DNA from: Escherichia coli
GTDB taxonomy: Bacteria; Pseudomonadota; Gammaproteobacteria; Enterobacterales; Enterobacteriaceae
DNA length: 64,000 nt
Direction: 5' to 3' (one strand)
Assembly (NCBI RefSeq): GCF_001677475.2
Contig: NZ_CP015229.1
Below are positions 19,382-21,784 of the stretch, piece by piece. The notes beneath the pieces are model-generated. The model was not told the DNA's origin. It saw nothing but the letters and a program-made list of their open reading frames with translations, and did not search any database. A program made the translations under genes and the position numbers. Positions within the stretch are counted from its first letter, which is position 1. Each line of letters opens with the position of its first letter.

Positions 19382-20326
19382 ATGATGAATAATGCTTCAC
19401 AACCGACAGTACTGCTTTTTGCCGGTCAGGGTAATCCGGTTATTGGTATGGGCAGCGATCTTTGGGATCTCAACGCCAGTACAAAACATATCTGGGATTG
19501 TGCCAGCGATATTTCCGGGCTGAACCTGCGTCGCCTGTGTCAGAAAGGGCCGATGAATCGCCTTATTCAAACGACGGTACAACAACTGGCGGTGACCGCA
19601 ATTAATGTAACGCTCTATACCCTGTGCCGCGAGCGTCTTGAGAATTTAACGGTTGTGGGCTCCTGCGGACACAGCGTTGGTGAATACAGTGCGCTCTACG
19701 CCGCTGGAGCTCTTTCTCTTGAGACGCTATTTGGCATGATTCACTTCAGAGCCAGCCTGATGCATGACGAAAGCCAGAGAAATAAAGGCGCAATGCTGGC
19801 GGTTAAAGGCATCAACCGCGAACAACTGCAGACGATGATTACGGAATCAGGCATTGCGCTGGATATTAGCTGTGATAACACGCCGCGCCAGCAGGTTATT
19901 GGGGGAACGCAGGCTGCGTTGAATGAATTTGCCACGCTGCTGATGTCCGCTGGATACGAACCGGTTAAACTCGGTGTGAGCGGTGCCTGGCACACGCGTT
20001 TGATGGAAGACGGCGTTCAGGCAATGCGCGATTATCTTGCCGGACTGGATATCGCTTCGCCAGAGCATCAGGTTCTGATGAACGTAACAGCAAAAAGCGA
20101 GGTCGCTCCGTCAATTATCAAAGAAAATCTCTCATTACACTTAACTCATACGGTGAAATGGACTGAATCTCTCGATACATTTCTGAATATGCCAACCCCG
20201 GTAGCTTTCCTTGAAATAAGTAATAAGCCCTATTTGGGGAATATGTTAAATGATTTTGCTGGCGTGGATCAGCAACGAGTTATGCATTGTCGTAAAGCAT
20301 TTAGTGATGCAAAGGTATTCAAATGA
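19382..20326 (+). CDS. FabD-like acyl-CoA:ACP transacylase (malonyl transferase family)
   Basis: 314 aa; [14 protein letters not shown] active-site Ser motif, LFAGQGNP, conserved His in [10 protein letters not shown]. Confidence 0.8.
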
Positions 20327-21309
20327 TTCCTGATTATTTAACTTTTATTCGCTTTCAGGATAAACGAAATCTGATATACATTTATGCTATTGGACTTATT
20401 CTGATAGGCTTTTATTGGAAAAATGCAGGGTTTACTTTTCCATCAGAGGATATTGGTGTCGTTAGTGGGATTCTGGCCCTGGTGCTGTATAATTTTATTT
20501 TTGATCTCAAGGCGTACTGGGCTTATAAATGCGTCACGAAGAATATCGATTTTTCGTGGTTTAAGAAAAAGCAGAACCACAAAATAGAATTATTTCTTAC
20601 ACAACCTCTGGTGGCAGGATTTCTGTCGTTAATCATGTTGAGTGCAATGAGTTGGGGGCTATACCAGCTTCTACCCTCGTTATATGCGCTGTTCCTGATT
20701 TCGTTACTTGGGCTGTTGGTCATCTTTCTGCTGTTTCGGATGATCCGCACCAGTTATGTCAAGCAGGTCGCTATTTCAGTAGCGAAAAAAGTAAAATATA
20801 AAAGTCTGACTCGCTATGTGCTGCTTTCGGTGTGCATCTCAACGGTTGTTAACCTGCTTACTATCAGCCCGTTGCGTAACAGTGATTCTTTTGTGACAGA
20901 GGGGCAGTGGTTAACGTTTAAATCGATAATTGCATTGCTCATTCTTTGTGGCGTAGTGTTGGCGATTAATCTGTTTTTTCTGCGCTTCTCCAAGCGGTAC
21001 GCTTTTCTGGGTAGGCTTTTTTTGCAGGAAATCGATCTGTTTTTCTCCAGTGAAAATGCGTTGTCGACCTTTTTTGCCAAGCCGCTTTGGCTTCGGTTAT
21101 TCATATTGCTGGTTATTGAAGTGATGTGGATTACGCTGGTGTCGGTATTGGCAACGCTTGTGGAATGGCGGATTTGGTTTGAAGCCTATTTTTTACTCTG
21201 CTATGTACCATGCTTAATTTACTATTTTTTCCATTGTCGATGCCTCTGGCATAACGATTTTATGATGGCATGTGACATGTATTTCCGTTGGGGGCATTTT
21301 AATAAGTGA
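20323..21309 (+). CDS. Polytopic inner-membrane protein of unknown function (Phe/Leu-rich, AT-rich coding sequence)
   Basis: 328-aa ORF with about 8 hydrophobic segments; ATGA overlap with FabD-like gene. Confidence 0.55.
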
Positions 21310-21502
21310 GGAAGTTACAGGAAGTGACCAGATAACGCATATATGTTCTGTACTCTCTTGCGCATTTTGATTGTTGACTGAGCAATCAGACAGTTGATGT
21401 GCACGATTTCCCCTCGCCCTAACAGACGTGGGCGGGGGGGACCCAGTGTGTGCAATATACGAAAAAAAAGCCCATACTTTCGTACGAGCTCTTCTTTAAA
21501 GA

Positions 21503-21590
21503 TGGCGGTGAGGGGGGGATTCGAACCCCCGATACGTTGCCGTATACACACTTTCCAGGCGTGCTCCTTCAGCCACTCGGACACCTCACC
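21503..21590 (-). tRNA. serX: tRNA-Ser (anticodon GGA), serX-like
   Basis: Reverse complement reads GGTGAGGTGTCCGAGTGGCTGAAGGAGCACGCCTGGAAAGTG...GGTTCGAATCCCCCCCTCACCGCCA with a long variable arm and encoded CCA. Confidence 0.9.
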
Positions 21591-21784
21591 AAATTGTCGT
21601 TCCTGTCTTGCTGGAACGGGCGCTAATTTAGGGAAATCATGACCTGAGGTCAACAAACTTTTTTAAAAAATCGCGCGTTTATTCAAACTTCAATCAATGT
21701 GCAGTTTTAATAAGCGAAATCTGCTTTTTTTGCCACCGACCACGGATTTGTTATGCTGGTGGCTTTTGTAGATCATAACGATAA

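Follow-up and report, generated by a model that had tools for sequence, protein, structure and literature searches.

The inner-membrane gene ycdU of Escherichia coli is the terminal gene of a synthase/export cluster recurring in two proteobacterial classes

The open reading frame (ORF) at positions 20323-21309 (+) of a 64,000-nucleotide stretch of E. coli contig NZ_CP015229.1 (hereafter, the window) is ycdU (b1029), a catalogued inner-membrane protein gene without assigned function. Here, ycdU closes a multigene synthase/export cluster, and a YcdU homologue accompanies every non-E. coli copy of that cluster examined, in two proteobacterial classes; this association seems to be absent from the searchable literature. 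The ORF has an ATG start and 328 codons, and matches the gene annotated as "ycdU: protein YcdU" with 100% coverage and 99.4% nucleotide identity. What is already known is the gene itself, listed as a "putative inner membrane protein", uncharacterised, with 8 transmembrane (TM) helices (PMC4951805). An earlier note, made from the sequence alone, had described the gene correctly without recognising it as the catalogued ycdU.

Linkage of ycdU to the cluster

Loci reached through YcdU homologues were found in Klebsiella aerogenes, Pantoea, Kosakonia, Erwinia oleae, Entomohabitans, Paraburkholderia, and two metagenome contigs. In every one of them, the homologue lies directly after a FabD gene at the end of the cluster, in neighbourhoods that are otherwise unrelated. 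Two further routes did not start from YcdU: genomes were scanned with an alignment of the cluster's 462-amino-acid (aa) protein, and homologues of its 317-aa protein were sought. The former route gave 19 loci, each with a same-strand ORF, where one was expected, that a hidden Markov model of the YcdU family recognised; by the latter, an intact YcdU ORF followed FabD in all three loci (Acinetobacter equi, Neisseria sp., and Utexia). In a Winslowiella locus without FabD, the YcdU homologue directly follows the 462-aa export-side gene. Removal of loci retrieved twice left 27 distinct non-E. coli loci from Enterobacterales, Acinetobacter, Neisseria, and Paraburkholderia. The YcdU homologue is the terminal gene in all 27, while the flanking genes differ from locus to locus, indicating that YcdU is an integral component of the cluster and not a hitch-hiker.

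The junction with the preceding gene is equally close. As the earlier note had observed, ycdU overlaps the stop of the FabD-like ORF, through a 4-nucleotide (nt) ATGA at 20323-20326 (+) that contains the ycdU start codon. This overlap couples translation of ycdU to that of FabD, and the two genes are co-transcribed; neither a promoter-like nor a terminator-like site was found at their junction. Overlap or tight spacing between FabD and ycdU recurs in other genera. That ycdU is a real gene and not a chance ORF follows from the ratio of nonsynonymous to synonymous polymorphism (pN/pS) among E. coli alleles, given below, together with full-length homologues at 19-25% identity in other genera.

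The earlier note was also right to place ycdU as the final gene of the island ahead of serX. The tRNA-Ser(GGA) gene serX, the only tRNA gene in the window, lies at 21503-21590 (-), and the right edge of the island falls at about 21442, some 60 nt past the serX 3' end. Island-free E. coli genomes align only from that point on, thus leaving ycdU as the outermost gene on the island side.

Orphan copies in K-12 and other E. coli

The window gene has the chromosomal position of ycdU, between FabD/ymdE (or a remnant thereof) and serX-ghrA-ycdX. Among 5426 complete E. coli genomes, ycdU is present in 2662 (49%). The synthase/export part of the cluster (window 6516-19371) occurs in only 390 (~7%), including O157:H7, and 378 genomes match window 1-24000 over at least 80% of its length. 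Approximately 2270 genomes (~42%), including K-12, carry ycdU as an orphan. Matches on plasmids were mostly chromosomes or chromosome fragments filed as plasmids, plus a few megaplasmids.

The K-12-like order reads dgcT (ycdT), IS3, a 5'-truncated acyl carrier protein (ACP) S-malonyltransferase pseudogene (ymdE, b1028), ycdU, RtT-like repeats, serX, and ghrA; this layout around ymdE-ycdU has been described (PMC5635171). The K-12 ycdU is the same gene, at 99.4% identity and in the same place upstream of serX-ghrA-ycdX. However, K-12 has IS3 in place of the cluster and a FabD remnant of 342-357 nt, whereas the window retains a complete FabD and the whole cluster. The FabD truncations fall into two classes, beginning at 417 and 602 in the coordinates of the query (window 19382-21700), and both spare ycdU. 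IS3-associated deletions would have removed the rest of the cluster and left ycdU behind. The ycdU and ymdE genes of K-12 are thus the 3' stump of a 20-kb synthase/export cluster of the O-island (OI) 47 type, a relationship that is apparently missing from the searchable literature.

In O157:H7, the same synthase/export cluster lies directly upstream of ycdU at 98% identity, and the order runs from the 462-aa protein through FabD and ycdU to the integrase of the serX island. A tyrosine-recombinase-led island of the OI-48 type separates ycdU from serX in both O157:H7 (L039, 3795-4997) and O103:H2 (L040, 3379-4581), so that ycdU stands between two separate islands in these strains. Published accounts describe OI-47 of EDL933 as a 31.7-kb island spanning z1528-z1556 (PMC8565820) and place ycdU at the flank of OI-48 (PMC3064760). 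From its position and these descriptions, we infer that the cluster forms the right-hand end of OI-47. The OI-47 papers found treat only the island's regulator GrvA, not the genes of the cluster.

The gene is under purifying selection. Of 12 orphan alleles sampled, 11 are intact and one is frameshifted; the intact copies comprise five nucleotide alleles and four protein alleles, with six synonymous-only versus four amino-acid-changing polymorphic codons. Pairwise pN/pS ranges from 0.07 to 0.33 over all pairs and from 0.07 to 0.29 between orphans. The substitutions are too few, and the counts too small, for more than a hint that orphan copies are still constrained. A pan-genome study found ymdE-ycdU to be robustly co-maintained in mastitis-associated strains of phylogroup A (PMC4951805), and a study of the PhoB regulon gives low RNA-seq read counts for ycdU, 53 and 64 (PMC10294691).

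Several features of individual alleles deserve mention. The frameshifted orphan, from CFSAN004176 (L041, 1841-2828), lacks IS3, so that dgcT abuts the FabD remnant; its ycdU carries a +1 frameshift through an extra A at about nt 685 and exemplifies orphan decay. The allele in the window encodes Leu131 (codon 131, 20713-20715, in TM4), where the six other E. coli alleles sampled all encode Pro, as do 41 of 44 members of the YcdU family; the window allele may thus be mildly defective. In K-12-type strains, one to three tandem 137-nt repeats resembling the "RtT sRNA" lie between ycdU and serX (L001, 21180-21678; L038, 3201-3699). No such repeat occurs at 21310-21502 of the window; Rfam finds the tRNA alone.

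This placement gives a K-12 gene without function a home at the end of a cluster that is intact in O157:H7 and in ~7% of E. coli. The cluster context explains why screens in K-12 have been uninformative, and ycdU can now be studied in a cluster-positive strain. It also has a practical side, as any K-12 host chosen for heterologous expression of the cluster brings a ycdU of its own.

The protein, its cluster, and its possible role

YcdU is rich in Leu (56 of 328 residues, 17%), Phe (33, 10%), and Ile (29). Kyte-Doolittle analysis yields eight hydrophobic segments, and the secondary structure of an AlphaFold2 model (all-helical; pLDDT 89, pTM 0.85) likewise contains eight membrane helices, in agreement with the first impression of a polytopic, Phe/Leu-rich protein with about eight hydrophobic segments. 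The predicted helices span residues ~17-33, 44-60, 95-115, 120-140, 165-184, 200-220, 256-279, and 286-306. Application of the positive-inside rule to 44 family members supports the eight helices and places both termini in the cytoplasm, with three cytoplasmic loops of 26-36 residues carrying five or six Lys+Arg each; the periplasmic loops measure 4-15 aa and are nearly uncharged. A search for an internal 4+4 repeat with hhalign gave an in-register but non-significant result (P = 0.012) and is not used as evidence.

Conservation within the family is sparse. Across the 44 sequences, M1, P3, N34, W66, Y68, P95, P183, L208, G230, W269, F286, and P296 are at least 95% conserved. The N-terminus is always M-[I/L/V]-P, N34 is the sole invariant polar residue, and no His, Ser, or Cys is conserved; semi-conserved polar residues within the TM helices are N57, N177, N216, and E/Q266. 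Enterobacteriaceae members additionally share a conserved 26-residue N-terminal motif, the motif KRYIFLGRLFxxEID, and a C-terminal WHxDFxxACDMYxRW. A catalytic motif WHxDF...CDM was considered and dropped, as it is absent from members at 19-26% identity: H310, C317, and D318 are kept only in close relatives and lost in distant, cluster-linked members. YcdU is also the most divergent cluster protein in every locus; Klebsiella aerogenes, for instance, shows identities of 78% for the protein with two ketosynthase (KS) domains (KS-KS), 71% for the permease, 60% for FabD, and 39% for YcdU. In the 317-aa thiolase-fold protein, by contrast, 28 columns are invariant, and many of these hold charged residues. 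The sparse conservation and high divergence of YcdU speak against a classical enzyme active site and suit a translocator, scaffold, or immunity protein better.

Database searches place YcdU in a small family. A word-indexed search of 5.8 billion proteins returned 109 relatives, all unnamed or "hypothetical"; those with a named organism are almost all Enterobacterales (Enterobacter, Kosakonia, Mixta, Klebsiella, Pantoea, Izhakiella, and Silvania), and one is labelled Vagococcus. In an exhaustive phmmer search, only 46 of 1.84 billion representatives matched at E <= 1e-3, including full-length members at 21-26% identity from Erwinia, Entomohabitans, Providencia, Rahnella, and Paraburkholderia. 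Such numbers, together with presence in 49% of E. coli genomes, are not those of a housekeeping core membrane family, homology to which was looked for and not found. Pfam, NCBIfam, and PADLOC scans of YcdU and 25 family members gave no consistent match, in line with the lack of a recognisable motif reported in the earlier note, and the family profile matched none of the PDB sequences. Nor was profile or fold similarity seen to known lipid and glycolipid flippases (MOP/Wzx/MurJ, MFS, SMR-type ArnEF, or the ATP-binding cassette (ABC) protein MsbA). One Paraburkholderia homologue bears an RDD label in UniRef; PF06271 matched none of the 25 members, P0147 and P0167 included, at E <= 1, and the label was set aside. 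The family thus seems to have no known relative in sequence or fold, which is apparently not recorded in the searchable literature either.

The genes that precede ycdU, all on the plus strand, define the setting in which it would act. Annotation and Pfam/NCBIfam scans identify acpS (holo-ACP synthase, 6516-6884), a short-chain dehydrogenase/reductase-type ketoreductase (6898-7659), a FabZ/FabA-like dehydratase (7663-8211), an ACP (8233-8514), an 852-aa KS-KS didomain protein (9784-12342), and a second KS (12347-13570). They are followed by the 317-aa cluster-specific protein (13567-14520), whose thiolase fold resembles ketosynthases, chain-length factors (CLF), and ketoacyl-ACP synthase III (KAS III). 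On the export side lie a LolD/MacB/DevA-like ABC ATPase (14531-15238; LolD, 7.8e-68), a 218-aa protein of no family with an N-terminal signal-like segment (15222-15878), and a MacB/FtsX-type (type VII) ABC permease (15879-17189; LolC/E, 1.2e-25; PF12704 and PF02687 on homologues). Next come a TP_0789-like (LolA-like) outer-membrane lipoprotein-sorting protein (17198-17986; by annotation, with PF17131 on homologues) and the 462-aa cluster-specific protein, which carries a signal peptide, has no family or PDB match, and is presumed to be an outer-membrane component (17983-19371). The FabD-like ACP S-malonyltransferase (19382-20326; TIGR00128, 2e-52), whose 3' remnant is the K-12 pseudogene ymdE, and YcdU itself complete the series. 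YcdU is the sole polytopic non-ABC membrane protein encoded in the cluster.

Aryl-polyene (APE) clusters encode synthases resembling type II fatty acid synthases (FAS), and their lipid product reaches the outer membrane by means of a LolA-like protein and a membrane exporter. The present cluster shares with them a dedicated ACP and a LolA-like carrier, several KS/CLF-type proteins, membrane proteins that are uncharacterised, and a ketoreductase and a dehydratase without an enoyl reductase; homologues of its FabZ-like protein give faint ApeI-like Pfam matches. Unlike APE clusters, however, its exporter is a MacB/Lol-type ABC system and not an MMPL protein, it has its own FabD, AcpS, and GcvT-like protein as well as a linked two-partner secretion (TPS) pair, and it lacks an adenylating starter enzyme, a thioesterase, and an LPLAT. 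The ATPase and permease belong to the same type VII ABC class as those of LolCDE-LolA and YbbAP-TesA, and a LolA-like carrier is again encoded alongside. Those two systems have no YcdU-like partner, and their substrates arrive by Sec/Lgt/Lnt or are membrane lipids, whereas the cargo here is presumably made on an ACP in the cytoplasm. No YcdU homologue was detectable in any characterised system.

Type VII ABC systems work on substrates that are already on the periplasmic face (PMC5985334, PMC8333309, PMC12646458). MacB-family transporters do not carry substrates over the inner membrane, and where a biosynthetic operon includes MacAB homologues, passage across the cytoplasmic membrane is stated to require a further pump (PMC5985334); LolCDE, similarly, removes lipoproteins from the inner membrane at its outer face (PMC8333309). 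Because such machinery only extracts from the periplasmic face, a separate step is needed for the product to cross, or be presented at, the inner membrane. We propose YcdU for this step because no other polytopic non-ABC membrane protein is available in the cluster. The synthase would assemble a lipid or polyene-like product on ACP in the cytoplasm, and this product would travel to the outer membrane by a Lol-like route, and YcdU would serve as a non-enzymatic (flippase-like) translocator or hand-off between the cytoplasmic synthase and the ABC extractor. That YcdU is a dedicated inner-membrane translocator or hand-off protein feeding a MacB/Lol-type extractor is our preferred reading, which we put forward tentatively. 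Among the roles floated in the earlier note, product handling is the most plausible class, whereas a membrane acyltransferase is weakened by the lack of a conserved His, Ser, or Cys.

The broader proposal, that YcdU represents a new family of lipid translocators in the inner membrane, linking a dedicated cytoplasmic synthase of the type II FAS/polyketide synthase (PKS) kind to Lol-like export of an envelope lipid (by way of the type VII ABC system, the LolA-like carrier, and an outer-membrane protein), possibly together with the linked TPS protein, is possible but doubtful. If it holds, a functional orphan in K-12 could silently complement heterologous expression of the cluster. Were YcdU indeed the membrane-crossing step, it would also address a general question for biosynthetic clusters with type VII ABC exporters.

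The long basic cytoplasmic loops admit another interpretation, namely that YcdU is a membrane scaffold or dock without transport activity, tethering FabD, ACP, and the KS proteins by the ABC machine while the product is released straight into the bilayer. Both the invariant N-terminus and the conserved loop motifs lie on the cytoplasmic side, translation of ycdU is coupled to that of FabD, catalytic residues are not conserved, and the fastest divergence in the cluster would be expected if contacts were the main constraint. However, conserved residues also sit at the periplasmic ends of TM1 and TM5 (N34, P183, and F190) and inside TM6-TM8 (L208, W269, and P296), eight TM helices exceed what an anchor needs, and Winslowiella keeps the ycdU homologue in a locus without FabD. 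We thus consider a pure scaffold unlikely.

Somewhat less probable again is an integral-membrane transferase or off-loading enzyme that moves the finished chain from ACP to an acceptor in the membrane, for instance a lipid head group; the acyltransferase of the earlier note is an idea of this kind. Annotation and Pfam/NCBIfam scans reveal no recognisable thioesterase, PlsC-type acyltransferase, or glycosyltransferase in the cluster, and the Enterobacteriaceae proteins conserve R10, Q12, and R142 along with the cytoplasm-facing C-terminal motif. However, the fourth thiolase-fold protein can account for chain transfer or release, and profiles of membrane-bound acyltransferases (MBOAT; PlsC/LPLAT with HX4D; PlsY) matched neither YcdU nor any of the 25 members. 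The invariant catalytic His (with Asp or Asn) of such enzymes has no counterpart in the family, in view of the loss of H310 and D318 from distant members.

The orphan copies bear chiefly on self-protection, in which YcdU would confer immunity to the cluster product or to the linked TPS exoprotein and, being useful alone, would be retained without the cluster. The gene outnumbers the cluster (2662 versus 390 genomes), both truncation points in FabD (417 and 602) spare it, the intact orphans show the codon counts and pN/pS values given above, ymdE-ycdU is co-maintained in mastitis isolates (PMC4951805), and YcdU evolves fastest among the cluster proteins. Against this, the numbers are very small, and the alleles could be older than the deletion or have been exchanged by recombination. 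One of the 12 orphans is frameshifted, ycdU read counts are low (PMC10294691), and the rest of the cluster resembles envelope-lipid biogenesis, not toxin production. Retention is also explicable by deletion end-points simply falling within FabD. Immunity is thus quite improbable as the role of YcdU.

Composition and surroundings

The observation that ycdU is more AT-rich than the neighbouring synthase genes was accurate: its GC content is 0.406, versus 0.454-0.525 in the seven upstream cluster genes, approximately 0.49 over the 6 kb upstream, and 0.484-0.541 in the downstream core genes ghrA, ycdX, and ycdY. The deficit is confined to the first and second codon positions (GC1 0.419, GC2 0.319), whereas GC at the third (GC3, 0.480) equals that of FabD (0.492) and ghrA (0.479). 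AT-richness thus mirrors the abundance of Leu, Phe, Ile, Tyr, Lys, and Asn in the protein. Moreover, in 16 loci of other taxa, the GC content of the ycdU homologue tracks that of its cluster, usually 2-6 points below, from 0.28 in Acinetobacter equi to 0.64 in Paraburkholderia. The different evolutionary origin once suggested by the low GC content, with ycdU merely sitting at the island edge, is therefore refuted by GC3 and by the strict synteny in all 27 loci, and retains a practically negligible probability.

Other genes in and around the cluster invite attention. A folate-binding, GcvT-like protein of the aminomethyltransferase family (8550-9710, +; 136.7 bits against a GcvT cut-off of 300) is conserved inside this FAS/PKS-like cluster, where it might provide a starter unit, transfer C1 units, or act in demethylation. 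Ahead of acpS lies the TPS pair, comprising a 1270-aa TpsA of the filamentous-haemagglutinin type (980-4792, +; RefSeq annotation) and a ShlB-type TpsB (4881-6500, +). A TPS pair likewise precedes acpS in Acinetobacter equi, Neisseria sp., and Utexia, and Erwinia loci carry a TpsA-like gene just downstream of YcdU. The TPS exoprotein thus seems to accompany the synthase/export cluster as a conserved partner, which prompts the thought that the secreted protein may depend on lipid or be modified by it. Upstream of tpsA, the first kilobase of the window (1-1000) has a GC content of 34%, and its equivalent in strain Res13-Lact-PER13-34 adjoins a fimbrial chaperone-usher operon.

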